A program made the translations under genes and the position numbers. Below, piece by piece: positions 7,883-49,448 of a DNA stretch of 64,000 nt (its first letter is position 1; every line of letters starts with the position of its first letter). This DNA is from a virus (taxonomy: Duplodnaviria; Caudoviricetes). The stretch is taken from the IMG/VR virus record IMGVR_UViG_3300050821_003357, positions 1,306 to 65,305 of that record; one strand, written 5' to 3'. The notes beneath the pieces were generated by a model. It was given only the letters and a program-made list of their open reading frames with translations, had not been told where the DNA came from and did no database searches.

Positions 7883-8059
7883 ATGAAGTGGCTGCGCGCG
7901 CGTCTAGCTGAGCCGTCGACCTATGGCGGGCTGGCGGGGCTGTGCATGATGGTCGGGATGTGGTCCTTCACGTTCTGGCCGCACTGGCGGCTGATGATCT
8001 ACGCGGCGGGAGTGTTGTTCATCGTCCAGGCGATCAAGGCTGAGCGCGGCGGCAAATGA
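7883..8059 (+). CDS. small 2-TM holin-like protein
   Basis: MKWLRARLAEPSTYGGLAGL..., 58 aa, ATGA overlap with next gene. Confidence 0.55.
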   Translation: MKWLRARLAEPSTYGGLAGLCMMVGMWSFTFWPHWRLMIYAAGVLFIVQAIKAERGGK

Positions 8060-9684
8060 TCCGTCGCATCCTCCTCGCCGCATGCCTGATCCTGGCTGCG
8101 GCGGGAGGGACATATTGGGCATTCCTTTGGGAAACGCATAGCCAGAGTTCGACTGGCTGCCCGATGCCGCATCTTCTGCAGAACGGTACGCTTGCCGATG
8201 CGGGTCAGGTGATGGACAATTTCAACACACTCAGCGGCTGCATCGCAAATATCGCCAGCTATGATGCGCGATCCTTCGGGGCGAAATGTGACGGGGTGTC
8301 GGATGATTCCGCCGTCATCAATACGGCGCTGATAAATACCAAAGTAGTATATATTCCTCCGGTTAGCACGGGTTGTGCCTACGGATCGACTATAAACGTA
8401 CCGGCTGACGCAAACATCGTTGGTTGGGGGCACAATCTATCGGTGCTGAAGGCTCTTTCGACTAATTTGACGGGGGTATCATTTACCGGCAGTTATAGCG
8501 GCATGTATGGAGTTACCGTCAACTGCGGTGCTCCTGGGACTAATTCTAGTGGCAATTGCGTTAATGTGGCGCCCGGTCTGCGCGAGATCAGAATCACGAA
8601 CAATGGCGTGCTCGGTCCATTTGTCGGGATCGGCACGACGACATCGGTTCTTGTGACGATAGAGGACAACTATATTTACAACCCTACGATTACAACTGGT
8701 GGGTGTATCCTTGTAAACGGTGGGAACAATCAGGTTCTCAGCAATAATTTCTGTCAGGGGATTGATTCAACGCACCAGCCGCGCGATGGGATCGAGATTC
8801 TGGATACGCAGGGCATCTGGCTCTCGAACAACCAGAGCCTTAATGCTGGGGCCGGCGAGTTGATTGATCCGGGAACGGGGCAGATAGTCACTTGGGTTTT
8901 TGAGGAGCGGGGTTCTTACGACAGTGGCTCGATGAACGGGCTATCGATCGCGCCCACGGGCACGGGCAGCGTGCGAGGCTATTTCTGCCATCAATGCTGG
9001 ACCTCGACCAACACGCTGAGCGGGGTTGCCATACTAGGCGGGGGTTCGACGGTAATCGATGACATCCATTTCGAGGGGCATCGATCTTACAATAACCAGC
9101 AGCACGGCGTTTCCGTAGGCGCTGGCGCAACGAACGTCTATCTTACGGCGGGTTCCTCGATCTGCGCCAATTCGCAGGCCGGCGCGGGTTCCTATAACGG
9201 TGTCGATATCGGCGTCGCAACCCACGTCACCATAAGCGGTGATCGTATCGGGAACTGCGCCGGGTTTGGTGGACCGGGTGGAAACCAGCTACACGCGATC
9301 AATGCTGGGCTCGGGTCGAATCAGCTCACGTTCACCGGGAACGACCTGACGGGGAACAACAACACTCCCCTCAATATCCTCTTCAGCAACGGCACGATCG
9401 CGACGATTGGGCAAAATCTCGGGGTCGATGATCAGATTCCAAACGTGGCATCCGCGACAACTGTTACTCTGCCGCCGAACCCGATCATCGCCCTGACCGG
9501 GAACACCTCGATCCAGAACATGCTTGGCGGCTGGCAGGGCGTCCAGAAAACATTCATTCAGGGGACGAATCAGACATTCGTCACGGGGGGTACATCGGGA
9601 CAGGACATCGCGACGGCCCTGACGACGACCTCGCCCATTCCGAACACGGCATATCTTGCGGGGCCGCATTGGTACATCAAGTAG
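8056..9684 (+). CDS. tailspike-like parallel beta-helix protein with N-terminal signal peptide
   Basis: FGAKCDGVSDDSAVINTAL pectate-lyase-3-like start, Asn/Gly beta-helix repeats; MIRRILLAACLILAAAG leader. Confidence 0.8.
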   Translation: MIRRILLAACLILAAAGGTYWAFLWETHSQSSTGCPMPHLLQNGTLADAGQVMDNFNTLSGCIANIASYDARSFGAKCDGVSDDSAVINTALINTKVVYIPPVSTGCAYGSTINVPADANIVGWGHNLSVLKALSTNLTGVSFTGSYSGMYGVTVNCGAPGTNSSGNCVNVAPGLREIRITNNGVLGPFVGIGTTTSVLVTIEDNYIYNPTITTGGCILVNGGNNQVLSNNFCQGIDSTHQPRDGIEILDTQGIWLSNNQSLNAGAGELIDPGTGQIVTWVFEERGSYDSGSMNGLSIAPTGTGSVRGYFCHQCWTSTNTLSGVAILGGGSTVIDDIHFEGHRSYNNQQHGVSVGAGATNVYLTAGSSICANSQAGAGSYNGVDIGVATHVTISGDRIGNCAGFGGPGGNQLHAINAGLGSNQLTFTGNDLTGNNNTPLNILFSNGTIATIGQNLGVDDQIPNVASATTVTLPPNPIIALTGNTSIQNMLGGWQGVQKTFIQGTNQTFVTGGTSGQDIATALTTTSPIPNTAYLAGPHWYIK

Positions 9685-17234: not shown

Positions 17235-17236
17235 CC

Positions 17237-19195: not shown

Positions 19196-19207
19196 AAGGA
19201 CGAGACG

Positions 19208-19804: not shown

Positions 19805-19811
19805 GGAGATC

Positions 19812-26363: not shown

Positions 26364-26656
26364 TGAAGCATCGCCGATATCTCGATGGCGCGGGGTATTT
26401 CATCAACGATGATCGCTGCTCTGGTGGTCATCTTTCCGAGGATGACGTGCTCGGCTGCGCGCATTGTCAGAAGGCGCTGAAACGGAAGATCTGGATCGAC
26501 AACGGCGGCTATTGCAGCCAATGCGATTGGGAACTCTGCGTCGAGTGCGCGACAAAGGCTTTGACGGAAGGCTGCGCCAATTTCAAGAGGATGTTTGAAC
26601 GGGAAATTGAGGCCGCTTATGTTCGCGAACAGAATGCGAGGATTTTGGGCATATGA
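26363..26656 (+). CDS. Cys-rich Zn-finger-like protein
   Basis: CAHC, CSQC, CVEC. Confidence 0.65.
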   Translation: MKHRRYLDGAGYFINDDRCSGGHLSEDDVLGCAHCQKALKRKIWIDNGGYCSQCDWELCVECATKALTEGCANFKRMFEREIEAAYVREQNARILGI

Positions 26657-27291
26657 CAAAGGTCGCGATCGGCGTCCTCGGGGGAACGCATGGTCATTTA
26701 GAGGCTGTGATTGATTACCTGATTCCTTTGCTGAGGACTTCCGATTGCCAGTGGGACACGTGGCGAGGAAGAGGCTATTCAGCAGCTAACGCGATGGTCT
26801 TGACGGCGATCGAAACGAAAGATCCGCCGGACTATCTATGGCTACTCGATGCTGACATGGCCTACCCGAAGGACTCGCTCAATCGCCTGCTGAAATGGCG
26901 CGTCGATATCGTTGGGCCGACCTATCGAAGAAGATATCCTGAGTTGGGCTTTGCGTTGGTCGAATATCCGCTGTCATCTCTGGTGACACCGAGTATTCAT
27001 TCAGGCGCGCATAGCATACACGAGTGGGATGCGATCCCTGCCGGCATGATGTTGATTAAGATGGAAGTGCTTCGGGCGCTTAAATATCCGTGGTTCTTCG
27101 ATGACCCTGGGGCACGCCTTGAAGATTTCGTTACTCAGGATATGAACTTTTGCAGATCTGCACGCAAAGCTGGCTTCAAGGTATGGTGCGATTATACCCT
27201 CAGCCGCCAAGTCGTACATTTGGCTGACGGGATACCCATCCCGTTCGATGTAGGACAACCCGATAGCAGAAGGAGAGACTCCCATTCCTGA
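26653..27291 (+). CDS. GT-A (family 2-like) glycosyltransferase
   Basis: YLWLLDADM, DIVG..Y.RR, GMMLIK, PWF, QDMNFC..ARKAGFKVWCD. Confidence 0.82.
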   Translation: MTKVAIGVLGGTHGHLEAVIDYLIPLLRTSDCQWDTWRGRGYSAANAMVLTAIETKDPPDYLWLLDADMAYPKDSLNRLLKWRVDIVGPTYRRRYPELGFALVEYPLSSLVTPSIHSGAHSIHEWDAIPAGMMLIKMEVLRALKYPWFFDDPGARLEDFVTQDMNFCRSARKAGFKVWCDYTLSRQVVHLADGIPIPFDVGQPDSRRRDSHS

Positions 27292-28032: not shown

Positions 28033-29694
28033 ATGACGCAACAATCCGGTTCGCACCGCGAATTTTACGAGCGGGAATTCCGGGGATACGTCAAGCTATC
28101 GGGACCGGCCGGGTTCGGGGCGGTCCAGGCGGTTACGCCGAAGCAATCGACGCGACAGGCGACGGTCCAGGAATGGCCGTTCGATCGCGGTGGGTATGCG
28201 GGGTTCCTGAAGCCGCCGATCGCGTATGGGGCGGCTCAGGCGGTTACACCGCTGCAAGCGGCGCGAGCGAATGTAGCGCAGGAGCAGCCCTGGCATCCGC
28301 CGGCCACGACTGCGGGGCCGCTGATCCCGGCAAGCGCCGCTCGCCCGCTACAGGCTACCAAAACAGCGGTTCCCCAGGAGTGGCCATGGCATCCGCCACC
28401 AACGCTAACAGCGCCCTTCCCGGTCAGCGCCGTTACGCCGCTGCAATCCGCCACAGCTCAGACTACGCAGGAGCTACCGTGGCATCCTCTGCCATCGACA
28501 TGGCCGCCCTTTCCAGTCAGCGCAGTTCGCCCGCTACAAGGGAGCGCTACGAGGATACCGCAAGAGCAGCCTTGGCATCCGCTGCCTTGGGCGTCCGCGC
28601 CCTTCCCGGTCAGCGCGACTCTACCACTACAATCCGTCAAGGCGCAGACCACCCAGGAATGGCCTGGCTATCATCCGACGCCGTGGGTAACGCCTGCGTT
28701 TATCCCAACAACCGCGCCCATCTCCTTTGTCGGGCAACGCCAGGCGCAGATTGCGCAGGAATGGCCGTGGCATCCTACACCCACGACCGCGAGCCCGTTC
28801 CCGGTCAGCGCGGCTCTGCCGTTGCAAGCCGCGAGCCTGCGTGTCACCCAGGAGTGGCCGTGGCATCCAGCGCCGTGGGCAACATGGCCGCTCATCACCG
28901 AGCCGTCCGGCAGCTTCGTTCCGCAGCCGCAGGCGCGGACGCAGCAGGAATGGCCGGGCTATCACCCAACGGCGAATCTGCCGACGCCGCTCATCCCCGG
29001 CAATGTGGGGCCGCCGCTACAGGGTCTCAGCGCTCGCACGACGCAAGAGTGGCCAGGTTATCATCCCGCCCCCACCACGTCGTGGGGATCGTTCGCCGCG
29101 CCATTCACATTCCCGCTTATTGGCTATTCGATCGTCAGGCAAGAATGGCCAGCTCACCATCCAGCGCCGACAACGCGCGGCCCGTTCCTTCCGAAAATCA
29201 CCTTCCCGCCGTTCCCTCTTCCCGGCGTGGCGAGAACGACTCTCGAATGGCCGGGGCATCATCCGTCGCCATTCCTGCAGGGTTCCTACAACTACACCCC
29301 CGGCACGGCTGTCATCTTCTCAGGTGGGCCGGTATGGGCAATCACCAATCGGAGCGGCGCTGGCGGCACAGCTTCAATATCCATCGGAACGGGGCCAAAC
29401 ATGACCTATCAGACCCGGCTCCGGTCGATGTACCTGGTGGTCTCGGGAGGTTCGGCGGGCGCGGCCACAGCGGTTGTGCGCGACGGCCTGGCCAGTAGCG
29501 GGCCTATTATCTTCCAGGCCGATCTTTCTACCGCAGCCAATAGCTGGGACTTCCTGGATTTCAACGAGATCGACCTGCGCGCAACGGCTGGTCATATTTT
29601 AACGGTTGAGTTCCAAGCCGGCACGCCCGGCGACTTCCAGGAGGTCAACGCTGAAGGAGACTTTGTGGCTCCTGGAACCCTGTACGGAGTATGA
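28033..29694 (+). CDS. Pro/Thr-rich repeat protein (12 QEWPxHP-type repeats) with C-terminal beta domain
   Basis: About 31-aa period; C-terminal ~120 aa paralogous to next gene. Confidence 0.8.
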   Translation: MTQQSGSHREFYEREFRGYVKLSGPAGFGAVQAVTPKQSTRQATVQEWPFDRGGYAGFLKPPIAYGAAQAVTPLQAARANVAQEQPWHPPATTAGPLIPASAARPLQATKTAVPQEWPWHPPPTLTAPFPVSAVTPLQSATAQTTQELPWHPLPSTWPPFPVSAVRPLQGSATRIPQEQPWHPLPWASAPFPVSATLPLQSVKAQTTQEWPGYHPTPWVTPAFIPTTAPISFVGQRQAQIAQEWPWHPTPTTASPFPVSAALPLQAASLRVTQEWPWHPAPWATWPLITEPSGSFVPQPQARTQQEWPGYHPTANLPTPLIPGNVGPPLQGLSARTTQEWPGYHPAPTTSWGSFAAPFTFPLIGYSIVRQEWPAHHPAPTTRGPFLPKITFPPFPLPGVARTTLEWPGHHPSPFLQGSYNYTPGTAVIFSGGPVWAITNRSGAGGTASISIGTGPNMTYQTRLRSMYLVVSGGSAGAATAVVRDGLASSGPIIFQADLSTAANSWDFLDFNEIDLRATAGHILTVEFQAGTPGDFQEVNAEGDFVAPGTLYGV

Positions 29695-30071
29695 CGTGGC
29701 AAATGACGACCCGCGGGGTAGCGGGCGCGGCAGCCTCGATCGCCGTGGCGACGGGACCAAACAGCACCTATCAGACGCGGCTGCGGGCGATGTATTGCAC
29801 GCTCTCAGGAACCAACGCCGGTAGCGGGACGCTGGTCGTGCGGGACGGCGCGACGGGCGTAGGCGCGATCATCTTTGAAGCGACCCTCAGCATACCTGTG
29901 AACAGCCGTGACCTGATCAACCGAACGGACCTTGACCTGCGCGCAACGGTGGGGAATCTGCTGACGATCGAGTTCCTTGCCGGCACGACAGCGGATTTTC
30001 AGTCAATCAACGCTCAGGGAGATTATGTGCCGCCAGGGACACCCTATGGTGCGACGGCGCTCGGCGAATGA
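29691..30071 (+). CDS. stand-alone paralogue of repeat protein C-terminal domain
   Basis: Shared TGPN.TYQTRLR.MY, VVRDG, DLRAT.G..LT.EF.AGT..DFQ..NA.GD. Confidence 0.8.
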   Translation: MTWQMTTRGVAGAAASIAVATGPNSTYQTRLRAMYCTLSGTNAGSGTLVVRDGATGVGAIIFEATLSIPVNSRDLINRTDLDLRATVGNLLTIEFLAGTTADFQSINAQGDYVPPGTPYGATALGE

Positions 30072-37074: not shown

Positions 37075-37271
37075 CGCCTCCGTGCCGTAGGGCCGCCACA
37101 TACCCAATCGATGAGCCGTAGCACGATCCAGGGGATGCCGAATAAGACGAACAGCGCATTTGGATCGGACAGCATACCTGCAATTGCCTCGCGACCATTC
37201 AGGCAGAAGAAGAATAGAGAAAGAAGAGCCGCCCAGAAAATGGCGATGCGGTCGGCCCAAATAAGTTTCAT
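36906..37271 (-). CDS. 2-TM membrane protein (moron)
   Basis: Antisense to late operon; two hydrophobic helices; 3' end overlaps ejection gene. Confidence 0.55.
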   Translation of the reverse strand: MKLIWADRIAIFWAALLSLFFFCLNGREAIAGMLSDPNALFVLFGIPWIVLRLIDWVCGGPTARRRYAPPRARNWASDGVMGTDAGDPAGTGARGMGCGAGTNAGTRRYALLLPKAGVGED

Positions 37272-37531
37272 TGGCAATAGATATAGTTGCCGAACGGCTG
37301 ACACGTCACGGTCCTACCGTTGGGAATATAGCTTTGCGGATACTGGCCGCTGTAGGAAGGCTGATAGGTCTGGGCCGGATAGCCATGCTGCATGTTGTAG
37401 CGCTGCGCCTGGCCGTTCTGGTAGCCCTGAGAAAACGCGCCGAGTCCAGTGAGTGCCGTTATCCATCCTTGGGCATGGGCGGCTGATGTGACGAGGCAAA
37501 GACCAAATACGGCGGCGGCTGTGTACTTCAT
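37268..37531 (-). CDS. small exported protein (moron)
   Basis: Signal ..SAAHA/Q; ends TCQPFGNYIYCQ; upstream TTGACG promoter-like site near 37558-37584. Confidence 0.65.
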   Translation of the reverse strand: MKYTAAAVFGLCLVTSAAHAQGWITALTGLGAFSQGYQNGQAQRYNMQHGYPAQTYQPSYSGQYPQSYIPNGRTVTCQPFGNYIYCQ

Positions 37532-37611: not shown

Positions 37612-37980
37612 ATGATGTTGCGCGCGCTGCTCGCGGCCTGCGTCCTGCTGATGTCGCCCGTCGCCGATGCGGCGCAACTCTACGGTCCCGCATCTAATTG
37701 TTCGGGCGCCATCGGGGTAACGCCGGCAAATATCACTTTCCCGACATCGGGAACGGGAGCGACCGCGCCGGCCGATTATCTGCTCATTCAGAACAATTCG
37801 ATCAACGGCCAGGTCATCTGGATCAATGATTTGGGCAGCGTAGCGACGACGGCCCCGCCGTCCATTCAGTTGGTTCCGACCGCCAGCGTGACCTATTCAT
37901 CGGCATATTATCCGATGCCGCCATCGATCTCGATAGTCGCCTCTGCCGCAGGCGCTGTTTATACCTGTCATTACAAATGA
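37612..37980 (+). CDS. exported virion-like beta protein
   Basis: Signal ..PVADA/A; YLLIQNNS. Confidence 0.75.
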   Translation: MMLRALLAACVLLMSPVADAAQLYGPASNCSGAIGVTPANITFPTSGTGATAPADYLLIQNNSINGQVIWINDLGSVATTAPPSIQLVPTASVTYSSAYYPMPPSISIVASAAGAVYTCHYK

Positions 37981-38906
37981 AGGTTTGGGTTCTGGTGGTC
38001 GCCCTGCTGTTGATAGGGACGCCCGCCAAGGCTCAGCTCAATTCGCAGATTTCCGGAAGCGGCTCAATAAACGGCTTAGTATCGGGAACAGGATTAGCGC
38101 CCGGTGCTGCGGCTTTCAATCTGGGGCCAGTTACAGGCGATCTCGCCGGGACATGGCCTAACCTCGGTCTAGCCGTTGGCTCGGCCTCCCGCAGCGTCGG
38201 CAATCTCGGTGTCTGTCTCGGGGGCACATTACCCAATCCGACCTCGCTGGCGGCATCGTGCGTGCTCGGTGCTCTCGGGACGCCAGCGGGAGACCTTGGG
38301 GGCGCTACTTATTCGGCACCGCTCGTCACTGGCTTGCAGGGCTTTCCGATAGCGTCAGGGATACCCCCTACGCTCAATAGCGCTCTGACGTGGAACGGAT
38401 CCAACTATGTGCCGGTCGTACAGGCGCCGGGCATCAACCAGCTCACTGGCGCAATCTCTGCGGGGCCTGGCACGGGAGCGCAAGCCTCGTCTCTCAATGC
38501 TGGGGTGGTGACTAACCAGAACCTCGCCCAGGCCCCGGCAACAACGTTCAAATGTAATGCGGGAGCCGGACCGGCGACACCGACCGATTGCCCAGTAACA
38601 GGCGGCATCGCCTTTATGGGTGGCGCCCTTCAGCTCGCTTCCAACTTGGGCACCTCGCAACAAACAACCGTGGGATCGAGCTGCTGGACGATCCAAAACG
38701 GCATCGTCTCATCGATCGTCTCGGGGAGCTGTTCGTCCGGCGTCGTACTGACGGCCGACGATGGCGTTACGCCTCTGACTGCGGATGACGCCGCCACTCA
38801 GCTTACCGCTGACGGCGGCACTCCCGGAAGCGCGTGCGGTGCATTGCAGGCCAAATTCACCGTCCCATGCAATGCGGCAATAGTGATGAATTTTCGAGGA
38901 CTCTAA
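37977..38906 (+). CDS. exported tail-fibre-like protein
   Basis: Signal ..TPAKA/Q; GDL.GT.PNP fibre repeats; LTADD x3. Confidence 0.75.
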   Translation: MKVWVLVVALLLIGTPAKAQLNSQISGSGSINGLVSGTGLAPGAAAFNLGPVTGDLAGTWPNLGLAVGSASRSVGNLGVCLGGTLPNPTSLAASCVLGALGTPAGDLGGATYSAPLVTGLQGFPIASGIPPTLNSALTWNGSNYVPVVQAPGINQLTGAISAGPGTGAQASSLNAGVVTNQNLAQAPATTFKCNAGAGPATPTDCPVTGGIAFMGGALQLASNLGTSQQTTVGSSCWTIQNGIVSSIVSGSCSSGVVLTADDGVTPLTADDAATQLTADGGTPGSACGALQAKFTVPCNAAIVMNFRGL

Positions 38907-39823
38907 TGATGAGAACGCTTTTCCGCTCTTTGGTTGCGAGCTTGATGTTGCTAGCGCCAAGCGCAGCTATAGCGGGAACCTGCAATCCATTTCCGATGCT
39001 CGATGCAAGCGGTGTCGGCAACGTCAATTTCAAGACCGCTACTGACGGCAGTTCCAACTGTTTCGGCTTCACAGGCTTAGTCGACAGCACGGGCGCAAAC
39101 GCCATTCCTGCGGTCGCGGCGCTGGCGGACGCCACAGCTAATCCGACCGATGCGCTCTTCGGTAGCCTGAATTTCGGCTACAACGGCACGACTTGGGATC
39201 GCTTACGGACAGTCGGCACCGGCGTCCTCAAAACCGATATGTCCTCGATTGCCGCCACAGCGACGGCGACCGGGCACGGTGTATCCGGAGCTGGCGTGCA
39301 GCGCGTGGAACTGCCGACCGATGGAACCGGCGTGGTCGGCCTCAATGCCGGCGCGAATACTATCGGCAATGTGGGGCTCGTAGCTGGCTCCGCACTCGTC
39401 GGTAAGGTCGGCATTGATCAGACGACGCCCGGCACGACCAATGCCGTTCAAGCCATCGCAGGTTCGACTGGTGGAACGAGCGTCTTTTCCAAGATTGTCG
39501 CCAACAACACCACGTCATTCGCCGTCGACGCCTCAGCAGGCACGCTCTACGCCATCTCGGCCTTCTCAATCAGCAACACCACTCCCGCTTTCGTGAAAAC
39601 GTTCAATACCGCACAGGGATCTGTGACGTGCGGGACCACTACGCCAGTCGATCGCATGGTCATCCCGGCAAACCAGACGCAAGGCGCCGGCTTTATCTGG
39701 AGTGTGCCGGTCGGCGTGGCCTATGGCACTGCCATTACAGCGTGCGTGACCGGGGGCATTGCGGATGCCGACACAACTGCTCCAGCGGCCAGTACGTTCC
39801 TAGTCTCCTTCTACTACAAATAG
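38906..39823 (+). CDS. exported fibre-like protein
   Basis: Signal ..SAAIA/G; YNGTTWDRLR, IGKVGIDQTTPGTTN-type motif. Confidence 0.75.
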   Translation: MMRTLFRSLVASLMLLAPSAAIAGTCNPFPMLDASGVGNVNFKTATDGSSNCFGFTGLVDSTGANAIPAVAALADATANPTDALFGSLNFGYNGTTWDRLRTVGTGVLKTDMSSIAATATATGHGVSGAGVQRVELPTDGTGVVGLNAGANTIGNVGLVAGSALVGKVGIDQTTPGTTNAVQAIAGSTGGTSVFSKIVANNTTSFAVDASAGTLYAISAFSISNTTPAFVKTFNTAQGSVTCGTTTPVDRMVIPANQTQGAGFIWSVPVGVAYGTAITACVTGGIADADTTAPAASTFLVSFYYK

Positions 39824-39833
39824 CGAGGAAGAA

Positions 39834-40109
39834 ATGAAACCTCTCCTGACAGTTGCGGCGGCGCTATTGTTTTGCGCTGCTGCGCATGCCGGACCCGTCA
39901 GCAAGCCGTGCAATCCCTGCGGCGACGATGTCGTGGCGGGGATGATTGAGGATCTTCAGCAATTCGGGTGGTGGCAGATGGTCCCAAACGGTGACGACCC
40001 AAACGATGAAACATACAGGAAATTCATCATTGGTGCCTTGTTCAGTCTGCGGTCGCGCGTGCCGCCCGGCAAATTCGAATACGTCATCAAGCAGTTGGAT
40101 GGTGAATAA
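39834..40109 (+). CDS. small exported protein
   Basis: Signal ..AAAHA/G. Confidence 0.6.
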   Translation: MKPLLTVAAALLFCAAAHAGPVSKPCNPCGDDVVAGMIEDLQQFGWWQMVPNGDDPNDETYRKFIIGALFSLRSRVPPGKFEYVIKQLDGE

Positions 40110-40582
40110 TGAAGACTTTAGCGGCCATTCTGGCTTTCTGCGTCGCCCTCTCCGCTGGAGCGCATGCTCAGCAGGTCACGACACAAGTTCTGAATCTCGG
40201 CCCAGTCGCCCTTACGACAGGCTCCACGGTAACAGTTCCGCCAACCGGCGGGGCTTCAGCAAACGGGTACACCGCGATCCAGCTAACGTTGCAGCTTCCG
40301 CTTGCTGACAAGCTGGCTGTGGGAAACACCCTCTCTCTGGAGGCGGACGTTTCCACGGATGGTGGTGCTACCTTCAATTATGTGGCCTCGACGAGTTGGA
40401 CTTCCTATGGCCCGGCCGGCGTTACGCTTCACTTACCGGGCGGCCGAACCATAGTCAATCCAGATCCGTTTTTGGGAATTGGCGTTGGTGTGAACGGGAT
40501 AACCACCTCGCTTTATCGGATTAAGTATCAAACGAATAATCTGACTACGGCTACGCCAATCGTGACGGGGTTCAAAGACTGA
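40109..40582 (+). CDS. exported beta-rich protein
   Basis: Signal ..AGAHA/Q; STDGGATF Asp-box-like motif. Confidence 0.72.
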   Translation: MKTLAAILAFCVALSAGAHAQQVTTQVLNLGPVALTTGSTVTVPPTGGASANGYTAIQLTLQLPLADKLAVGNTLSLEADVSTDGGATFNYVASTSWTSYGPAGVTLHLPGGRTIVNPDPFLGIGVGVNGITTSLYRIKYQTNNLTTATPIVTGFKD

Positions 40583-41301
40583 TGTTTCGCCGAGTATTTA
40601 TTGGCCTCTTACTAGCGGGACTCTGTAGTGGGGCGCATGCTGCGAACATTGTCTTTTCCGGCGCGGCGGATTTGGGAAATGCAGGTGGTCCGATCTCTAC
40701 ATCTTATACCGTTGGAACTGGCCAAAACAGAATATTGGTGCTTTGCGCGCTAGACGATACCGCTCACGGCCACACCGCTACGTATGGCGGCGTAGCCCTG
40801 ACTGGTCCGGTCGCTGTAGATGCTAACCAAGCTCAGGAGCTGTATTATCTGCTAAATCCGGCTTCGGGGTCCAATACATTGACTTTTACGGACAATGTAT
40901 CAGGAATCAGTTTCAATCAAGTAATTGTAGCTGACTACTATAACGTTAAGCAAACAGGACAGCCTGACGGAACGGGCTTTGCAGACGACACAGGGACCAA
41001 CGACACGTTTTCGGGCGGCTTCACGACAACGCAGGCCGGGGCGTCGGTGGTCGCATGCGCAAGCAACTCCGGCAATGGCACGGCACCTACAGTCAGCGGG
41101 GTAAATTTCACGCTGCGAACCTACGCCGCACAATTCGGCGACACACTGATAGCTGATCACGGTTCAAAAGCCCCAGCCGGGGGGGTGACACTAACAGCGA
41201 CAATCCACAACGGCGGCTTTAAGCAAGGCCAGTCGTTTCTTTCTCTTATCCCCGTTCCCAGTGGCGGCTCGCTCATGATGACCGGAGTAGGCAATCAATG
41301 A
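40582..41301 (+). CDS. exported beta-sandwich virion-like protein
   Basis: Signal ..SGAHA/A; TYGGVALT, YYLLNPASGSNT; tail LMMTGVG. Confidence 0.72.
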   Translation: MFRRVFIGLLLAGLCSGAHAANIVFSGAADLGNAGGPISTSYTVGTGQNRILVLCALDDTAHGHTATYGGVALTGPVAVDANQAQELYYLLNPASGSNTLTFTDNVSGISFNQVIVADYYNVKQTGQPDGTGFADDTGTNDTFSGGFTTTQAGASVVACASNSGNGTAPTVSGVNFTLRTYAAQFGDTLIADHGSKAPAGGVTLTATIHNGGFKQGQSFLSLIPVPSGGSLMMTGVGNQ

Positions 41302-42215
41302 ACATGCGTGGACTCTTCATAGCGACGGCGGTTGCTACGGTCGGTGTGGGTATCCCGCTGGTGGAGGCTACCGAGGATTTCAAGACATTCTTCGGTGGAT
41401 TGACTAGCGCATCTACGCCGCTCGGGTCCGGAGATGGGGTTATCGTCCTGCAAGGCGGGGCCGACAAAAAGATCCCAGGCAACTCCCTAGTCACTCTTTC
41501 AGATTCTCAAACCCTTACGAACAAAACAATTCCGTCCAGCAATAACATTACGGTCAACGCGGCGACCCAGCTTATTAACCAAGTGCAGCCCGGCAATGGC
41601 GGGCTGGGCATAGCCTCTGGCCCAGTGGGTGGGGGTGCCGTATTATGTAATACCGCGACAACCACCTACGCCTTCTCCTCAGTCCTAACTGCCAACCTTC
41701 CGGTGATCGGCGGCGGCGCGGGGGCGTGTCCCGGCCTCGGATCGGTAACAGGCAACACATCCAAGTTCGTCACCAATACCGGTGCGAACACGACGGGGCA
41801 GGGCGGCAGTTGGGATGCCAATGGAAATTGGGTCAACAACGCAAATGCGGTCTTTACCAATGTCGCGCAGTCCTTTACCGCGCAGCAAACCTTTGCCTCG
41901 ACGATCGGCACGCAAAACAATCAGTCAGGTACGACTTACACGCTGGCGTCGACCGACTGCGGCAAGACGGTATACTTCACGTCGTCTAGTCCGATAACGG
42001 TTACGTTACCAGCCACCCCGCCCGTTCCATGCACAGCGCAACTCGAACAGGGCGGCGCGGGGCAGATAACTACTATTCCGGCGGTGGGCGCGACTGGGCC
42101 GAGCAATCCGCATGGATTCACCAAAACCTTTGGGCAATACGCCGTCATCACTGTGTTTGTCGATACCAACTCAGGCACCAATGGGCACTGGATTCTGACG
42201 GGTGACGGCGCATGA
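41298..42215 (+). CDS. tail-fibre-like protein with hydrophobic leader
   Basis: QTLTNKTI, QSGTTYTLASTDCGK, W.LTGD terminus. Confidence 0.78.
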   Translation: MNMRGLFIATAVATVGVGIPLVEATEDFKTFFGGLTSASTPLGSGDGVIVLQGGADKKIPGNSLVTLSDSQTLTNKTIPSSNNITVNAATQLINQVQPGNGGLGIASGPVGGGAVLCNTATTTYAFSSVLTANLPVIGGGAGACPGLGSVTGNTSKFVTNTGANTTGQGGSWDANGNWVNNANAVFTNVAQSFTAQQTFASTIGTQNNQSGTTYTLASTDCGKTVYFTSSSPITVTLPATPPVPCTAQLEQGGAGQITTIPAVGATGPSNPHGFTKTFGQYAVITVFVDTNSGTNGHWILTGDGA

Positions 42216-44959
42216 GATGGCGACTGGCACTATGCCTGATCGCTTGCACATTTCCTGCCTCGGCTCAGCTTTTCAACATCGCCAGTTTCGATGCGAGGCC
42301 GGGCGAGACGACCTTCGGCAATGGCGGCCAGCCTTGGCCTATCGGCACCATCAATGCCGAGAATTACGATACGGCCGTTAAGCCGGGGATCGCCTTCAAC
42401 GTACCGAACAGCAATACCCTTCCCGCCTGTCAGGCAACCACGTATCGATCTGATGCCGCCAATCTTCAAACGTCGAGTGATGGACCGGCCTTCCAAATCG
42501 GCTGCGCTGTTACCGGGACTTGGTATCAGTATATCATCAACATTCCGACGCCATCTCCGTGCCCTTGCAAGGTGACTCCACGCCTCGGCAGCCCATCAGC
42601 GGGAGGCTCATGGGCGTTTTATATCGATGACACGCTGATTGGTGCGGTCGCTACACCGAATACCGGCAGTTATACGACCATGCAGGGCGTCGATTCCGCT
42701 CCTTTCAATCTTGCGTCAGGCAATCATACGGTGCGGTGGCAGTGGGCGAGCGGCGACGCCAACGGTTATGCCGGCTCGATGAGTTCGTTTCAATTCCCTG
42801 GCATCGGCGGTGGCCTGTTGCCGGCTGATCGTGATGCAATCGCTAATTGGAAAATGGCCGGATTGCTTTCGATTGGCGGCATTCCGAGTCGTTCATCGGT
42901 ATGTGCCACGCTAAGCCCTAGCGGCGGAGACGACGCGGCACCCATTCAGAGCGCCATCAATAGCTGCGCAGCCAATGGCGTCGTGATGCTCAACGCCGGT
43001 ACTTTCAATCTCAATAGCGCATGCGTCAATGTGAACAAGAACATCGTACTTCGAGGCGCTGGCGCAGGGCAAACGATACTGGCGGTGACCAACGGCTCGA
43101 TCCTGGGTGACTTTCACAGCAATGGTCACAATGGTTGTGTGGTCGCGGTTGGCGGCGGCGGCACAATTTCCAACACGACGAATCTCACGGGTGACGGTGT
43201 GCAAGGTGCCTTTTCGGTCAATGTTGCAAGCACCTCCGGAATCTCGATCGGTAGCCTAGTCCTCGTGGACGAACTCGGCATTGGGCAGGCGATGCCAGAT
43301 GTCGCCATGAACGGCGGCACAGGTCAAGTATGGGCCTCCCCTGATTATCGGGTGGAGTGGAACGCTCACAGTCCTGGCACCGCAGTTGATAGCTCATGCG
43401 TCTATGGAACGAACAATTTTTCGTGCGGCACGAACGGCGATGAGTGCGCCTACAGCATCCGTTGCGGCGGGGTAAATGAAGAGCTTCATTTGGTTTCCGC
43501 GATCAACGGCAATACCATTACCTTCGACTCACCACTGACGCTGTCCTATCGCACTGCCAATACGGCGCAGGTTCATGTCTACTCGCCATCGACCATTGTG
43601 CAGCAGGCCGGAATTGAGAATCTCACGATGTGGGGCGGCGACCAGGGCAATCTCACCTTTGGTGCTTGCGTTTACTGCTGGAACAAAAACATCGAGAGCT
43701 ATCAGTGGCTCAACCAAGGCGGCATCTATTTCGGCCGCGCCGCATTCCGCGATCAGGCGGACACATGCTGGGTCCACAATGCCGCGTGGCCGGTCAATGG
43801 CGGCGGCGGGTACGCGATCAACCTGACCTTTGGTGCGTCCGAGGAGTACATCACCAACTGCGTTTCGATGCTCGCCAACAAGGTTATCGTCATGCGGGCC
43901 TCGGGCGCCGGCAGCGTCGTCGCCTACAATTATATGGACGATGGATATATCAACGGGAATTCCGGCTGGGTCGAAACGGGCCTGAACTGCAGCCACTTGG
44001 TGGGCAGTCATCATGCGCTATTCGAAGGCAACCAGTCGTTCAACATCGACTCCGATTTTACACATGGGGCCAGCCCCTACTGCACCTATTTCCGTAACTA
44101 CATCACCGGAATCAGAGAGACGTTCACTGGGCTCGATGGCGTGGTACGCAACGACAGTGCCGGGTGCTGCGGCCCACAGCGGGCGCTGGCGTCGCATCCT
44201 TATACCTATTGGACCTCATTTATTGGAAACATCGCTGGAACGCCTGGAGTGACGACCGCTGGTCATGGCTGGGTTTATAGCGACAACGGCACCGGCAACG
44301 GCAATTCCGGCGCTTCGTCGATCTTGAAACTGGGATGGAACGATTTCAATCTCAATACCTCACAAGGAGGCCCTAGCCAGCCCGATAATGTGGCCAATAC
44401 AATATATCCGGCTACGCCATCTGGCGTGACCGCGTCTGGATGCTTGGCTGATGCCGATCCTTGCACGACCATCGTCGATGGGAATTACGATTACCAGACG
44501 AATTCTATCCATTGGGCCTCGAATGATATTGCGCACACCCTGCCAAATTCGTTCTATCTGACTGGGACACCGTCATTCTTTGGCTCCTCTACATGGCCGC
44601 CTGTCGATCCGATTAACGCTACCGTCTACAACATCCCGGCACATGCCCGTTGGGAGGAGTGCCAGCCGAGTCCAACGGCGGCGTGTGTATTAGCGCCAGG
44701 TTTCATGACATTGACTGTAACTCCGGCGAGTCCGTCCATTTCGTCTGGGGCGGCGCTAGGCAGCACGGTTGCCACGCTTAGCGTCACATGGTCAGACGGC
44801 CATCCCTTCTCCGGCACATTTGGATTTGCCGCGCCCAATTTCGACGATGGAGGAACCTTCGCGATCTCGGGAAGCAATGTAATCGTCAAGCCGGGCGGCA
44901 CTGGCGTCGCTAGGGATGGCGGCACAATTCAAAACATCACCGTTACGGCTACTGAATGA
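42212..44959 (+). CDS. exported multidomain protein: CBM6-like + beta-helix + cadherin/Ig-like
   Basis: Signal ..PASA/Q; INAENYD, PNTGSY, LASGNHTV; DDAAPIQSAINSC, VLRGAGAGQT; about 24 Cys. Confidence 0.8.
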   Translation: MRWRLALCLIACTFPASAQLFNIASFDARPGETTFGNGGQPWPIGTINAENYDTAVKPGIAFNVPNSNTLPACQATTYRSDAANLQTSSDGPAFQIGCAVTGTWYQYIINIPTPSPCPCKVTPRLGSPSAGGSWAFYIDDTLIGAVATPNTGSYTTMQGVDSAPFNLASGNHTVRWQWASGDANGYAGSMSSFQFPGIGGGLLPADRDAIANWKMAGLLSIGGIPSRSSVCATLSPSGGDDAAPIQSAINSCAANGVVMLNAGTFNLNSACVNVNKNIVLRGAGAGQTILAVTNGSILGDFHSNGHNGCVVAVGGGGTISNTTNLTGDGVQGAFSVNVASTSGISIGSLVLVDELGIGQAMPDVAMNGGTGQVWASPDYRVEWNAHSPGTAVDSSCVYGTNNFSCGTNGDECAYSIRCGGVNEELHLVSAINGNTITFDSPLTLSYRTANTAQVHVYSPSTIVQQAGIENLTMWGGDQGNLTFGACVYCWNKNIESYQWLNQGGIYFGRAAFRDQADTCWVHNAAWPVNGGGGYAINLTFGASEEYITNCVSMLANKVIVMRASGAGSVVAYNYMDDGYINGNSGWVETGLNCSHLVGSHHALFEGNQSFNIDSDFTHGASPYCTYFRNYITGIRETFTGLDGVVRNDSAGCCGPQRALASHPYTYWTSFIGNIAGTPGVTTAGHGWVYSDNGTGNGNSGASSILKLGWNDFNLNTSQGGPSQPDNVANTIYPATPSGVTASGCLADADPCTTIVDGNYDYQTNSIHWASNDIAHTLPNSFYLTGTPSFFGSSTWPPVDPINATVYNIPAHARWEECQPSPTAACVLAPGFMTLTVTPASPSISSGAALGSTVATLSVTWSDGHPFSGTFGFAAPNFDDGGTFAISGSNVIVKPGGTGVARDGGTIQNITVTATE

Positions 44960-46461
44960 GGGCGTTCCTTGCTCTTGTGGCGGCGGTTCTATTGTCGGGC
45001 GGCCTTCTCGTAGCGGTCGGCGTGCATGGCCAACTGCTCAATCTCACCCATTCGAGCAAGACAGCCGAGCAGAGCTTTGGAAACGGCTCCCCCAGCCAGC
45101 CATGGCCGAGCACATCGACAATTAACGCCATCAACTACGACATTGGCGGCTCAGGCATTGGCTACATCAGCCCCGTCACAGGCTGCCTCAATTCCAGCTC
45201 ATATCGACCTGACACGGTAAACTTCAAAACCTCTACCGCTGGAGCGCCATATGTGCTGGGCTGCAGCACTCCGGGTATCGCATATAAATACACGATCAAC
45301 ATTACCGGAACCGGCCCATTCACGATAACGGCGAATCTTGCCGATACGTCGGCGGGAGGATCGTGGGGCGTATCAATGGACGGAACCTCTATAGGTTCGA
45401 TAGCTACGCCCAACACCGCAAGTTTCACCACATTCCAAGGCGGTACGTTATCGGCTCCGTTCAATGCGACGGCGGGGAACCACACGCTGCAATTTACCTC
45501 GCTGGGCGGGGATGCATTGTTCAATGGCTCAGGTGACTTCCTGTCATTCCAAGTATCGCAGGCTACCGGTGGCGGCGGCATCGCCTGCAATATCGGCCCA
45601 AACTATACCGGAACCATTCCGGCGGGAGCTGTGGCTGCCGGGTTTACCCATTGCGCCGCGAATTTCGATTTCGGGCAAGCGCAGTTTAGCAATCCTGCGA
45701 ATTGGCTGGACTGCGCGGGCGCTTCGACACCGATATTTTTCTTTAATAACCAAAGCGGGTCTGCCCCATGTGGTAGCGCCGTGTCTGTAGTGACAGATAG
45801 CAGCGGCGGCGGCCAAAAGGCTCTTGATATGCACTGGGATCCATCGTGGCAACCATTTAGTGAGATAGACCCGGAGCAGTTGTTTCCAGAGGGGGTGTAT
45901 ATCGACTGGATTATGAGATATTCTTCATCGTATTTAACTGCGAATAGCCTTGAGACGCTAATCGGCAGCATCTACTCGGAAAGTGGCAACTGTTGCACAG
46001 TTAATGCGTATGAGTGGGATCTTGACGAGCAGGCCATCAAACCAAGCCAACCGAGTCTTACATTTGGGTACACAGCAACCCACCCGGTCCAATGGCCGCT
46101 GTTGATAGTCCCAAACGGAGTGCCCGTAGCATTCAACACAATCAGCAATTTTAATCCCACGATCTATCAAAATTACGGCGTCAGGATCACGACCGATGGG
46201 AATATCGCATGGTCAATGTGTAATTATTGGAACGGTCAATTTGAGAGCTGCGACAATTGGAATGCGCCTTGGCAAATCGCGGCAGCAGATCAGCTCAATC
46301 GATGGAAGATCCAGGTTGGCCCCCTTTCGTCTACGTTAAACAACGGGACTGCGTATGACGCGTTTTGGCAAAGAGTGACCTTCTGGACCTGCCCCGCATG
46401 GAGCCCTTCGAGCCAGCTTACCCAGTGTAATAACAATCCTACCAAGTCGGGGGCGCCGTGA
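44956..46461 (+). CDS. exported CBM6-like + beta-jellyroll (GH16-like) protein
   Basis: Leader ..GVHG/Q; INAINYDIGGSG, AGNHTLQF; EWDLDE resembles the GH16 ExDxxE motif. Confidence 0.7.
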   Translation: MRAFLALVAAVLLSGGLLVAVGVHGQLLNLTHSSKTAEQSFGNGSPSQPWPSTSTINAINYDIGGSGIGYISPVTGCLNSSSYRPDTVNFKTSTAGAPYVLGCSTPGIAYKYTINITGTGPFTITANLADTSAGGSWGVSMDGTSIGSIATPNTASFTTFQGGTLSAPFNATAGNHTLQFTSLGGDALFNGSGDFLSFQVSQATGGGGIACNIGPNYTGTIPAGAVAAGFTHCAANFDFGQAQFSNPANWLDCAGASTPIFFFNNQSGSAPCGSAVSVVTDSSGGGQKALDMHWDPSWQPFSEIDPEQLFPEGVYIDWIMRYSSSYLTANSLETLIGSIYSESGNCCTVNAYEWDLDEQAIKPSQPSLTFGYTATHPVQWPLLIVPNGVPVAFNTISNFNPTIYQNYGVRITTDGNIAWSMCNYWNGQFESCDNWNAPWQIAAADQLNRWKIQVGPLSSTLNNGTAYDAFWQRVTFWTCPAWSPSSQLTQCNNNPTKSGAP

Positions 46462-47081
46462 CTTGGCAGCAAGCGGGATTTGGGCTGTTTGCCGTCGCGA
46501 TCATCTGTGAGCAAGCGCATGTCGCCTCCCCTATCGTTCTAGCGTGGTCGCATCCGAAACTTCGGCAGGTAGCCTTGTCGCAGCCGATTGAGAGCCTACT
46601 GTTGCCAGCGCTTGCGATCGTCGGGGCATTGCTCAGCCCGTTCTGGCTGATCTTTTGGGTTTACTACGTTTGGAATATCTATCACTTCGGCGCGCAGCAC
46701 TACGGCGTCGCCTGCCTCATCGGCTGGCGTGTTCCGCGCTGGGTATGTGTTGGCGGCACAGCCGTGCTCATGGCCGGCGTACCGATGCTAACCGATGCCA
46801 CATGGTGGCGCTGGCTTGCGCTGGTGGCGCTCGACTTCAACCATTGGCTCGTCGATCTCAGTCTGTCGAGCCGTGTGTCGCGATGCTGGTGGCTCTTTCT
46901 TGCGGCTGTTCTGGGGCTCGGCTGCATCGGATTTGCATGGAAGATCCCGCGCGCGGATCACATCGCGACCCTTGCCTTACCGATCGTGATCAAGGCGCGC
47001 TGGGGCGTCGGAATTGCTCACTTTCTCTATAGCCGCTGGGTCTGGAAGCGCGATGCTGCGTTCGGATGGATCGCACGATGA
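46458..47081 (+). CDS. multi-TM His-motif membrane protein
   Basis: QAH, WNIYHFGAQHYGV, FNHW, AHFLY..WVWK. Confidence 0.7.
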   Translation: MTWQQAGFGLFAVAIICEQAHVASPIVLAWSHPKLRQVALSQPIESLLLPALAIVGALLSPFWLIFWVYYVWNIYHFGAQHYGVACLIGWRVPRWVCVGGTAVLMAGVPMLTDATWWRWLALVALDFNHWLVDLSLSSRVSRCWWLFLAAVLGLGCIGFAWKIPRADHIATLALPIVIKARWGVGIAHFLYSRWVWKRDAAFGWIAR

Positions 47082-48632: not shown

Positions 48633-49448
48633 ATGAACAGGCTCATTGCGTGCCTATTGCCTGCGGCTCTTGCTGCGTGCGCGGGACAACAGGCCGGGCC
48701 ACCTGGGATTCCATCCTTTGCTGACATAGGCACCGCGCAGGCAGCACTCCAAAATTGGTCCGCTCCCGGCGCCCCAACCGCCATGCTGAACATCGGTACG
48801 GTGCTCGACGATCAGGGCTGCTACGGATGGTTTGATCAACAGGTGCTCGCGGGTCAGAAGGGCACCTTCTTACAAAGCCTCCTAGGCCTCGGCGGTGGCG
48901 GCGCCGCTATCGCGGGCGGACCGGCTGGCTTAGCGGCAGCCGGCGCCATGGGGCTCGCCAGCGGGGCTCTGGGAGCTGCCCAAGCCAATTCCCCAACTGG
49001 GACCAACCCAGTTGCAGCATACGCGCTTACCAAGCGGCAACGCGATGTATGGCGATCCGCCGTCGCTGTCGATCCACCGCAGACGCCGGACGTGGCCTGG
49101 GTAGACCTCAACTCCTATCATCAATACTGCACGCTCAGCGGCATCCAGCTCGCGGTTGCGCAAGCGGCCATGACAAGCCCGGTGACGGTGGTTCCGACGC
49201 CGATGGCGCCTCTCCCGGTGTCTGTGCCGTCGCCGCCGCCTCCAGCGCTGCCGCCGCCATCACTTCCGCCGAAGCCAGTCCAACCTTTGCCGGTTCCGCC
49301 ACCGCCGCCGAGCGTTTCGCAACCGGGCGGTCCGATCGTCACTCCAAACTTCCGCACTTTTGAGCAGGCACCGCCGAAGACGCCTGGGGGGGCGACCCAG
49401 TACGGGACGGTCGCGGTTCCTCCGCAGACCTGTGTGGGGTGCCGATAA
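48633..49448 (+). CDS. Pro-rich lipoprotein (possible spanin component)
   Basis: LAAC lipobox; poly-Pro C-terminus; between holin and endolysin. Confidence 0.65.
   Translation: MNRLIACLLPAALAACAGQQAGPPGIPSFADIGTAQAALQNWSAPGAPTAMLNIGTVLDDQGCYGWFDQQVLAGQKGTFLQSLLGLGGGGAAIAGGPAGLAAAGAMGLASGALGAAQANSPTGTNPVAAYALTKRQRDVWRSAVAVDPPQTPDVAWVDLNSYHQYCTLSGIQLAVAQAAMTSPVTVVPTPMAPLPVSVPSPPPPALPPPSLPPKPVQPLPVPPPPPSVSQPGGPIVTPNFRTFEQAPPKTPGGATQYGTVAVPPQTCVGCR

Follow-up and report, generated by a model that had tools for sequence, protein, structure and literature searches.

Nine Consecutive Genes with Predicted Export Signals

The DNA stretch analyzed here (the window) comprises 64,000 nucleotides, G000:C1:1306-65305 of the 65,305-bp IMG/VR virus record IMGVR_UViG_3300050821_003357, which CheckV rates as 100% complete. 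Between positions 37612 and 46461 it carries nine consecutive plus-strand open reading frames (ORFs), designated P1 to P9, in the slot that holds the tail fiber genes in other phages of the clade (Table 1; genes outside the cluster are named by their first position). The cluster follows the virion gene 32015 and the ejection-like genes 33152 and 35518 and precedes a lysis-like cassette of small membrane proteins, a lipoprotein, and an SLT transglycosylase. Most of its start codons overlap or abut the preceding stop codon, as where the start of P2 overlaps the stop of P1. The longest ORF of the third gene opens at GTG 38834, and its leader begins at ATG 38906 with GAGG 10 nt upstream. The portal shares 38% identity with its counterpart in Myxococcus phage Mx8 and 32% with the portals of Brucella Tb-group phages, the gene order of the window is that of Mx8 and the Brucella phages (Pr was compared), and two soil DNA runs contain the cluster stretch used as query (shares of 0.89 and 0.51); we class the phage as a complete Mx8/Brucella-Tb-like podovirus of soil origin.

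All nine proteins begin with a predicted Sec-type signal peptide. Signals were scored with a rule-based heuristic of our own, not SignalP, that looks for an n-region of non-negative net charge, an uncharged hydrophobic core of 8−20 residues, small residues at −1 and −3, and cleavage within residues 14−36. The sequence-only reading of this locus had described a basic residue followed by a hydrophobic core on every one of the nine ORFs, mostly with an AxA-type site, and the heuristic bears this out, with nine of nine scores above 5.2; the predicted Sec-type export signals on the cluster proteins are thus confirmed. The residues at −3 to −1 are, from P1 to P9, ADA, AKA, AIA, AHA, AHA, AHA, VEA, ASA, and VHG. 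These are the sites that had been named beforehand, with small residues in all nine and an AxA-type site in eight; for P2, P4, and P5 the top cut of the heuristic falls two residues upstream, and the listed sites were read by eye. That the sites are often followed by Gln stands only in part, as Gln is found at +1 in four of the nine proteins, two of these read by eye. Downstream of the nine leaders, no in-frame start with a Shine−Dalgarno sequence occurs within 30 codons, and therefore no signal-less isoform is seen.

A score of at least 5 was reached by 14 of 84 chosen window genes versus 1 of 166 shadow ORFs (out-of-frame or antisense, at least 80 amino acids (aa)). Among control phages, this score was reached by none of the 14 core virion proteins of Mx8 (p44−p57), none of the late proteins of Brucella phage Pr (0/12) or Rhizobium phage RHph_I3_18 (0/13), and 1 of 24 late proteins of a Bradyrhizobium phage, the positive one being holin-like. 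The capsid, adaptor-like, nozzle-like, and ejection-like proteins of the window are likewise negative, as had been stated from the sequence. Five positives lie outside the cluster: 8056, 22245, and 23054, for which the same pattern had been claimed, and additionally 37268 (minus strand) and the lipoprotein 48633. At the background rate of 5/75 outside the cluster, the chance of nine positives in a row is ∼1e-11 by our own rough arithmetic.

Table 1. Genes discussed in the text and their positions in the window
Gene or feature	Position	Strand	Description
Helicase, then large terminase	terminase 4965		
8056	8056..9684	+	Spike-like protein, 542 aa, 12 Cys, signal or anchor; between terminase and portal
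Portal	9685		phrog_12082, E 1e-157
Major head protein	15637		
Tail protein	20911		
22245	22245-23042	+	Putative exported protein, 4 Cys; signal score 5.3
23054	23054-25060	+	Putative exported protein, 18 Cys; signal score 6.5
28033	28033..29694	+	Signal-less proline-rich protein, 553 aa; C-domain conserved in G001 and G002
Nozzle-like protein	30068		phrog_5107 (family annotated amidase); nozzle role assigned by position
Virion protein	32015		phrog_6121
Two large ejection-like proteins	33152 and 35518		
37268	37268..37531	-	Small putative exported protein, 87 aa, 2 Cys after leader; signal score 5.3
P1	37612..37980	+	Putative exported jelly-roll protein, 102 aa, one conserved Cys pair; first gene of the module
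P2	37977..38906	+	Putative exported Gly/Ser/Thr-rich fiber-like protein, 309 aa, 8 Cys; signal score 5.2
P3	38906..39823	+	Putative exported protein, 305 aa, 4 Cys; signal score 5.7
P4	39834..40109	+	Putative exported protein, 91 aa, 2 Cys; signal score 6.0, GAGG at -9
P5	40109..40582	+	Putative exported protein, 157 aa, 0 Cys; signal score 6.0
P6	40582..41301	+	Putative exported protein, 239 aa, 2 Cys, twin Arg in n-region; signal score 5.6
P7	41298..42215	+	Putative exported fiber protein with C-terminal tip domain; phrog_21978, E 1.3e-5
P8	42212..44959	+	Putative exported protein, 915 aa, 24 Cys; CBM6-like N-domain, beta-helix core, C-terminal Ig-like domain
P9	44956..46461	+	Putative exported protein, 501 aa, 12 Cys; CBM6 and GH16-like jelly roll
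46458	46458..47081	+	Multi-pass membrane protein, 207 aa; translationally coupled to P9
48633	48633-49448		Lipoprotein, 271 aa, lipobox-like leader, 4 further Cys; just before SLT transglycosylase

Signals and Paired Cysteines Travel Together

The cysteine content of the signal-bearing proteins is consistent with oxidative folding. In the genome of the window (G000) and its two closest relatives (G001 and G002, described below), 33 of the 34 signal-bearing proteins that contain Cys have an even number of Cys residues after the leader, whereas the count is even in 69 of the 145 other ORFs that reach 80 aa, a set that may include spurious ones (Fisher p = 1.3e-8); such p-values overstate the evidence because related sequences are not independent. 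The sole odd-numbered exception has a lipoprotein-type leader. Cys makes up 1.97% of the residues of signal-bearing proteins versus 1.16% in the others of the three genomes. Several cluster proteins had been described from the sequence as Cys-rich, and the mature forms of P8, P9, and P2 indeed hold 24, 12, and 8 Cys residues.

Three families link the leader with a Cys pair. The tip motif of P7 was found in 89 of 120 listed homologues; the motif position is occupied by Cys in 55 and by Ser in 1 of the signal-predicted members, and by Cys in 16 and another residue in 17 of the others. By eye, several of the 16 Cys-bearing "signal-less" members are fragmentary or show a leader at a more internal position. 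The signal-less members of the family begin like ordinary fibers, and the copy in the cultured Variovorax phage VBv52 is signal-less, has Val at the Cys position, and follows an 1100-aa protein. In the P1 family, both conserved positions, one near each end, are Cys in 25 of 28 aligned rows; the N-terminal Cys is missing from three rows, two of which are the only leaderless ones. The anchor motif that follows the leader of 8056 is bracketed by a Cys pair in the signal-bearing versions of G000, G001, G002, and G007, and the version in the more distant genome G003 has no leader and neither Cys. The predicted signal and the Cys pair therefore travel together in all three families (P1, P7 tip, and 8056 anchor motif), and we regard export and oxidative folding of the slot proteins, as predicted here, as well supported.

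The Signal Is Kept in Close Relatives While Most Protein Bodies Are Exchanged

A search with the nozzle-like protein identified two close relatives among IMG/VR genomes, G001 (64,910 bp, 80% identity) and G002 (65,545 bp, 76% identity), both rated 100% complete. They share the same synteny, in which the ejection-like genes are followed by a small signal-bearing gene on the opposite strand, a P1 orthologue, and then large proteins, of 1283, 413, 1534, and 617 aa in G001 and of 1059, 221, 196, 192, 970, and 2041 aa in G002. For the relatives, ORF selection followed a greedy longest-ORF rule, which sometimes gives the wrong frame or start. The heuristic detects signals on five of five slot proteins in G001 and six of seven in G002, and in the 196-aa protein of G002 that it misses a leader can be seen by eye at an internal Met. 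Homology of these slots to the window is limited to P1, one beta-helix core, and short stretches, and the 1283-aa and 1059-aa proteins are 67% identical to each other over the first 150 aa only. The signals that had been noted in the window are thus predicted to be conserved in the fiber slot of both relatives, while most of the protein bodies have been replaced. A conserved N-terminal part joined to an exchangeable distal part is seen in the G001/G002 fibers and in 8056, whose N-terminal 100 aa are 47% identical in G001, and P8 and P9 share their first domain. The 1059-aa protein of G002 matches annotated tail fiber or tail proteins in eight of nine phage records.

A scan of viral contigs with an alignment of the nozzle-like protein (A4) yielded 20 further viral loci at 34−59% identity. 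Signal-bearing proteins also lie in or near the slot in G003, G004, and L105. By eye, two ∼940-aa slot proteins, one in G003 (L119-L121, reverse strand 17090-19930) and one in G004 (L124:8278-11094, minus), carry twin-arginine leaders; the Pfam TAT_signal model gives E 0.054 and 13.9 bits versus a cutoff of 22.7 for one and nothing for the other. If these leaders are real, then folded proteins are exported from the slot too. The anchor motif of 8056 is shared with a signal-less protein that G003 encodes between its adaptor-like and nozzle-like genes.

Other members of the clade encode canonical fibers. In G005 the slot has no signal-bearing proteins, and its fibers begin with a signal-less MPWNGSG N-terminus or a near variant. 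The nozzle-like gene occurs in 18 of 401 alphaproteobacterial genomes, and MPWNGSG or a near variant is found in six of eight prophage regions taken from those 18. Brucella phage Pr, RHph_I3_18, and the Bradyrhizobium phage (ppBjS10J-1) also have signal-less fiber candidates. A pattern search for the MPWNGSG-type N-terminus was positive in G005 and negative in G000−G004. Since this N-terminus was not found in G000−G004 and their slot is filled by signal-bearing genes, the ordinary fiber appears to have been replaced and not supplemented.

We note that in Mx8 (L006 33297-41130) the proteins p58, p59, p64, p66, p67, and p71, all annotated as hypothetical and encoded 3′ of the virion genes, begin with signal- or lipoprotein-type sequences, as judged with the heuristic or by eye.

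Composition of the Cluster and Other Signal-Bearing Proteins

The first cluster protein, P1, has orthologues with leaders in G001 and G002 (50−52% identical) and belongs to a family of 33 representative clusters; a search for the family in G003−G007 returned no match, an empty answer that carries no weight. Its AlphaFold2 (AF2) model (predicted local distance difference test (pLDDT) score 88.6) is an eight-strand sandwich or jelly roll, and its 21 BFVD matches at E ≤ 0.001 are uncharacterized phage proteins of ∼100 aa. Between the ejection-like genes and P1 lies the divergent gene 37268, which has a homologue at the same place in G001 (52% identical over 89 aa) and an unrelated small signal-bearing ORF at its position in G002.

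No annotated tail fiber protein was matched by P2−P6, and no enzyme-like domain was found in them in Pfam, PHROG, or NCBIfam. P2 has no Pfam, PHROG, or cultured-phage match, P4 no family match in Pfam or PHROG, P5 none in Pfam, PHROG, or NCBIfam, and P6, with its twin Arg, neither a family match nor a match to Pfam TAT_signal. The 30 nearest ESM-Atlas clusters of P3 by features are all unnamed, and the three shown are 87−96% viral; the P3 family is phage-typical and unnamed. P7 has 131 homologues. In tblastn searches, its tip domain, which also occurs in signal-less tail fibers, matches a "minor tail protein" of Gordonia phage Madeline (E 3e-4) and also matches Variovorax phage VBv52 (E 6e-5).

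The CBM-like, beta-helix, and GH16-like (glycoside hydrolase family 16) domains that had been read from the sequence were recovered in the last two proteins, CBM_6 and a GH16-like jelly roll in P9 and a predicted beta-helix core in P8. The N-domain of P8 has no Pfam hit of its own but shares 43% identity with the P9 N-domain over 189 aa; the P8 C-domain shares 45% with the end of 22245. The beta-helix core of P8 (∼620 aa) has 270 homologues at E ≤ 0.001, PF12708 being annotated on a few of the 120 listed, and its profile matches polygalacturonase 1bhe (E 1.1e-4 over 67 positions). The NCBIfam matches of P8, TIGR03805 and NF058554, are far below their cutoffs and are the only ones among the proteins scanned. 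In P9, residues 91−190 match CBM_6 (PF03422, 42.8 bits versus a cutoff of 28.9). The C-domain of P9 (AF2 pLDDT 82.9) retrieves GH16 enzymes, alginate lyases, and legume lectins alike in Foldseek (E ∼1e-6; TM 0.42−0.56 for GH16), and no GH16 family is among the Pfam hits of P9. No relatives came up when viral contigs were scanned with P8, P9, and 35518 individually; megablast of 30000−50000 and tblastn of P8 and P2 gave no match among cultured phages, and PDB sequence searches with P9, 28033, P7, and 23054 gave none.

Both domain families also occur in bacteria. The P8 core has 125 matching stretches in GTDB genomes, often several per genome, from Alphaproteobacteria (Rhizomicrobium, Acetobacteraceae, Hyphomicrobiales), Myxococcota, Steroidobacteraceae, Acidobacteriota, and others. 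By the heuristic, 42 of 76 bacterial P8-core loci are signal-positive, 7 of them with a lipobox, and more are positive by eye; 4 are cut at the 5′ end. The leader is kept in three of three viral loci. In the GH16-like family, 18 of 22 members have leaders and 21 of 22 have even Cys counts. In Myxococcota metagenome-assembled genomes (L056−L063, L073, L079), the beta-helix core occurs in four to six or more copies per genome, and many Myxococcota copies have lipoprotein-type leaders and N-terminal extensions of 470−750 aa.

Directly after P9, gene 46458 has a G001 homologue (35% over 192 aa) directly 3′ of the last signal-bearing gene there. Its ESM-Atlas cluster has 125 members, Uroviricota being the commonest phylum, and no named family. 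In the metagenomic protein P0005 (1282 aa), a homologue of 46458, a hydrophobic segment, a fiber-like part, and a beta-helix core form one ORF. The ORF may be a merged gene call; if it is a true fusion, it would give the membrane protein a functional link with the exported proteins. Elsewhere in the window, 8056 matches the "tail fiber protein" family phrog_33320 (E 3.4e-13), and 22245 and 23054 are inserted between the adaptor-like and nozzle-like genes, with signal-bearing counterparts in G001. The lipoprotein 48633 is large for an outer-membrane spanin.

A Host-Recognition Module That May Mature in the Periplasm

Since the slot proteins carry signals and paired cysteines, the host-recognition proteins of this phage probably mature outside the cytoplasm. 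The reading that we favor, tentatively and with slightly less than even confidence, is that the nine genes encode an exported host-recognition module of fibers, a beta-helix spike, and glycan-binding or glycan-cutting proteins that dock on particles after lysis. The module resembles fibers in its slot position, in sequence (P7 tip, 8056, and the 1059-aa protein of G002), and in its conserved N-terminal and variable distal parts. We favor docking because the genes occupy the fiber slot, the ordinary fiber is missing, N-termini are conserved while distal parts are exchanged, and the 8056 anchor motif is shared with the signal-less G003 protein encoded between the adaptor-like and nozzle-like genes.

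In the mechanism that we propose, a Sec leader would take each protein across the inner membrane, signal peptidase I would remove it, and disulfides would form in the periplasm. Heads and tails would be assembled in the cytoplasm without the cluster proteins. The holin and the bursting of the cell would then bring the periplasmic proteins to the particles, where they would dock via their conserved N-terminal modules. Both P22 tailspikes and T4 fibers can join finished particles in lysates. More speculatively, the waiting beta-helix and GH16-like enzymes may cut host surface glycan, which could shield the infected cell from superinfection and leave progeny less stuck to debris.

The sequence-only reading had proposed that the receptor-binding parts fold oxidatively in the periplasm and join particles at lysis, or that they form a phage-encoded cell-surface structure. 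Periplasmic folding is strongly supported by the signals, the Cys parity, the leader−Cys coupling, and the relatives, and joining at lysis is a further step that we infer. Generalized, and put forward with a little more reserve than docking itself, the proposal is that of a two-compartment virion whose capsid and tail would form in the cytoplasm and whose whole receptor-binding apparatus would form in the periplasm, becoming infectious only after holin action and lysis, with fiber modules switching form together with the leader and Cys pair. It would cover temperate tailed phages of soil Alphaproteobacteria, exporting by Sec and, in some relatives, perhaps by Tat.

Several points weigh against docking. 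Tailed virions assemble in the cytoplasm, so exported fibers could join them only after the holin acts. No docking partner was identified among the proteins examined. The particle may be complete without the cluster, with 25417, 27308, and 28033 as signal-less structural candidates. Of these, 28033 has a long proline-rich N-terminal part; its last ∼120 aa are 66−68% identical in G001/G002 while the rest differs, and searches of Pfam, PHROG, and PDB sequences gave no match for it. Possible roles of 28033 are those of a cytoplasmic fiber or a docking site; a complex prediction of mature P1 with its conserved C-domain scored 0.06, which weighs neither way. The leader of 8056 is long and resembles a membrane anchor more than it does a cleaved signal, and the beta-helix and GH16-like families are mostly ordinary secreted bacterial proteins. 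All signal calls come from our heuristic and not from SignalP, and the lineage is known here from genome sequences. Finally, two soil RNA libraries from two studies contain scattered 151−270-nt contigs, identical or nearly so, that cover virion and cluster genes but carry no timing information; DNA carry-over is possible, and such contigs cannot rank genes. As a separate observation, the ORF that follows 28033 (29691-30071) opens with a similar stretch and, by eye, may be a paralogue of its C-domain.

Alternative Readings

A possible alternative, to which we give about one chance in three, is that the proteins form a free periplasmic set, lectin-like or glycan-cutting, that is later released and never joins the particle, the true receptor binder being a signal-less protein such as 28033. 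Roles for such a set, directed at the envelope or exopolysaccharide of the infected cell itself, would include receptor destruction or masking, superinfection exclusion, release through a thick matrix, and path-clearing for progeny. An enzymatic role needs no virion, and no assembly-compartment problem arises. The bacterial relatives fit this alternative, with signals in many of the P8-core loci and, within 10 kb of them, no other window gene except the N-domain of 22245, which precedes beta-helix proteins in six loci. So do the leaders of the GH16-like homologues and the ExDxxE motif that P9 carries in its C-terminal half and that recurs in 21 of the 22. In addition, the signal-less 25417/27308/28033 block neighbors a beta-helix gene in viral locus L004 as well. 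However, the canonical signal-less fiber N-terminus was not found in the five signal-bearing genomes, whose slot these genes fill, and the conserved N-terminal modules, together with the 8056 anchor motif shared with the signal-less G003 protein, suggest that the proteins dock on a conserved partner. For the P7 tip and the G002 fiber, the matches are to tail fiber proteins and not to enzymes, and five of the nine proteins (P2−P6) have no enzyme-like domain among those searched for.

It is unlikely that the cluster is instead a lysogenic-conversion or cell-surface module, a coat expressed from the prophage that alters adhesion or blocks phages, in which P1 would be a pilin-like subunit linked by disulfides. 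A temperate lifestyle is probable for the lineage, as a tyrosine integrase matches with 58 bits in G001 and weakly in G002; no integrase match was found in G000. The divergent small gene between the ejection-like genes and the cluster would suit such a module, as would the signal and lipoprotein genes after the virion genes of Mx8. P1, with a Cys near each end, has as its best VIA match Ena1B (7a02_A), a subunit of disulfide-linked spore pili (Z 7.9; Foldseek E 0.007−0.008 against Ena), but this match is poor (root-mean-square deviation (rmsd) 9.5 Å), sits at a common Z level, and ties with cupins and virus jelly rolls. P1 also matches the PM2 spike domain (VIA Z 7.3, rmsd 2.5 Å) and, weakly, the fold of the Bdellovibrio Bd2133 tip (E 0.02); judged on the model, its likeness to solved structures is that of a common jelly-roll fold only. 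The case for the cell-surface structure raised by the sequence-only reading is therefore weak. Moreover, no usher, secretin, or other outer-membrane route is present among the genes scanned, and the cluster genes are translationally coupled, have late-gene orientation, and lie directly 5′ of the lysis genes. A promoter scan of 36900−50300 gave 5 sites versus 7.1 expected from shuffles, and therefore no separate promoter is evident; terminators are likewise at or below the shuffle expectation, and the scan as a whole weighs neither way.

It is very improbable that the hydrophobic N-termini are helices for trimerization or tail attachment on ordinary cytoplasmic fibers, a reading that the purely heuristic signal calls and the anchor-like 8056 N-terminus would allow, but that is opposed by the even Cys counts (33/34), the leader−Cys coupling in three families, the AxA-type sites (8/9), the same kind of leader on bacterial homologues, and signal-less relatives that begin at the conserved module without such a helix.

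Relation to Known Systems

The accepted view places the folding and assembly of every component of a tailed virion in the reducing cytoplasm. The sequence-only reading knew of no described system like this one, and in agreement with it, full-text literature searches found no signal-bearing tail fibers in a tailed phage, subscription journals and supplements being outside their coverage. A close comparison is with the canonical fibers of the same clade (the "putative tail collar protein" of Brucella phage Pr and those of RHph_I3_18, ppBjS10J-1, and the prophages), which have the same slot and the same modular build in phages that share the backbone of portal, capsid, adaptor-like, nozzle-like, and acetyltransferase genes. 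The canonical fibers are leaderless, many with the MPWNGSG-type N-terminus, whereas this N-terminus was not found in G000−G004, where the slot proteins have a leader and paired Cys. The g3p protein of the Ff filamentous phages is receptor-binding, has a Sec leader, and acquires disulfides in the periplasm before joining the virion. It resembles the present proteins as an exported, disulfide-stabilized receptor-binding protein, but assembly of the Ff virion takes place at the envelope, with extrusion through it, which makes export of g3p a part of assembly, whereas particles here would form in the cytoplasm because the phage has an HK97-type capsid, a portal, a terminase, and a lysis cassette.

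Other phage proteins use the host Sec pathway, among them spanins and superinfection-exclusion lipoproteins. Lys44, a signal-peptide endolysin, and the signal-arrest-release (SAR) endolysins are late proteins that rely on host Sec and await the holin in the envelope (PMC6116005), and the T4 antiholin RI is also a late protein that passes through Sec (PMC8385771). These endolysins and RI serve lysis, with one or two such proteins in a phage, and are neither structural nor involved in host recognition. Beyond phages, the MAT fiber adhesins of Bdellovibrio combine a signal peptide, a conserved beta-rich domain, a long phage-like fiber, and varied tips with beta-sandwich or lectin folds (PMC10769870); they are exported relatives of phage adhesins and form a cellular counterpart, but they belong to a predatory bacterium and are not encoded in a phage fiber slot, and the fold of P1 weakly matches the Bd2133 tip. 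Pantoea WceF is an exported bacterial tailspike-like beta-helix enzyme that remodels exopolysaccharide (PMC7949094). The P8 core family in bacterial genomes resembles WceF, which is chromosomal and acts alone, whereas P8 has extra N- and C-terminal modules in common with other proteins of this phage and lies in a phage fiber module.

The same fiber domains thus appear to exist in a cytoplasmic form, with no leader and no Cys pair, and in an exported form with both. If the exported proteins join the particle, this would constitute a new assembly route in which infectivity depends on host Sec and Dsb, and these phages would be a natural source of disulfide-stabilized receptor-binding proteins for engineering. 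If they remain free, the cluster would be an unusually large phage-encoded periplasmic arsenal in the fiber position, with host binding presumably by other means. Annotation that discards signal-bearing proteins as nonstructural, or that names every slot protein a tail fiber, would mislead. The Cys-parity and leader−Cys coupling tests are applicable across viromes.

Additional Features of the Genome

Near the right end, the window encodes a GcrA cell-cycle regulator homologue (68 bits) and an N6/N4 DNA methylase (62130-62648 and 63262-63999). Because of these two genes, and as GcrA is, we assume, specific to Alphaproteobacteria, the sequence suggests an alphaproteobacterial host; the pair may interfere with the host cell cycle. 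The annotation of Brucella phage Pr includes a GcrA-like protein as well.

The portal coding sequence is split into two pieces, 9685-11232 corresponding to phrog_12082 positions 14−473 and 12357-13127 to positions 518−710, with four small ORFs between them (11229-12357). The C-terminal piece is also a separate ORF after the portal in G002, G003, and G004.

Two genes of the virion region resemble glycosyltransferases. A 652-aa protein directly 3′ of the capsid genes (17237-19195) has glycosyltransferase (phrog_1962), MptE-like (PF01973), and methyltransferase (PF13578) parts, and the tail region contains another glycosyltransferase-like gene (26653-27291). Their products may glycosylate the virion, which would be relevant should P8 and P9 bind the particle through their CBM6 modules. 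The relatives keep a homologue.

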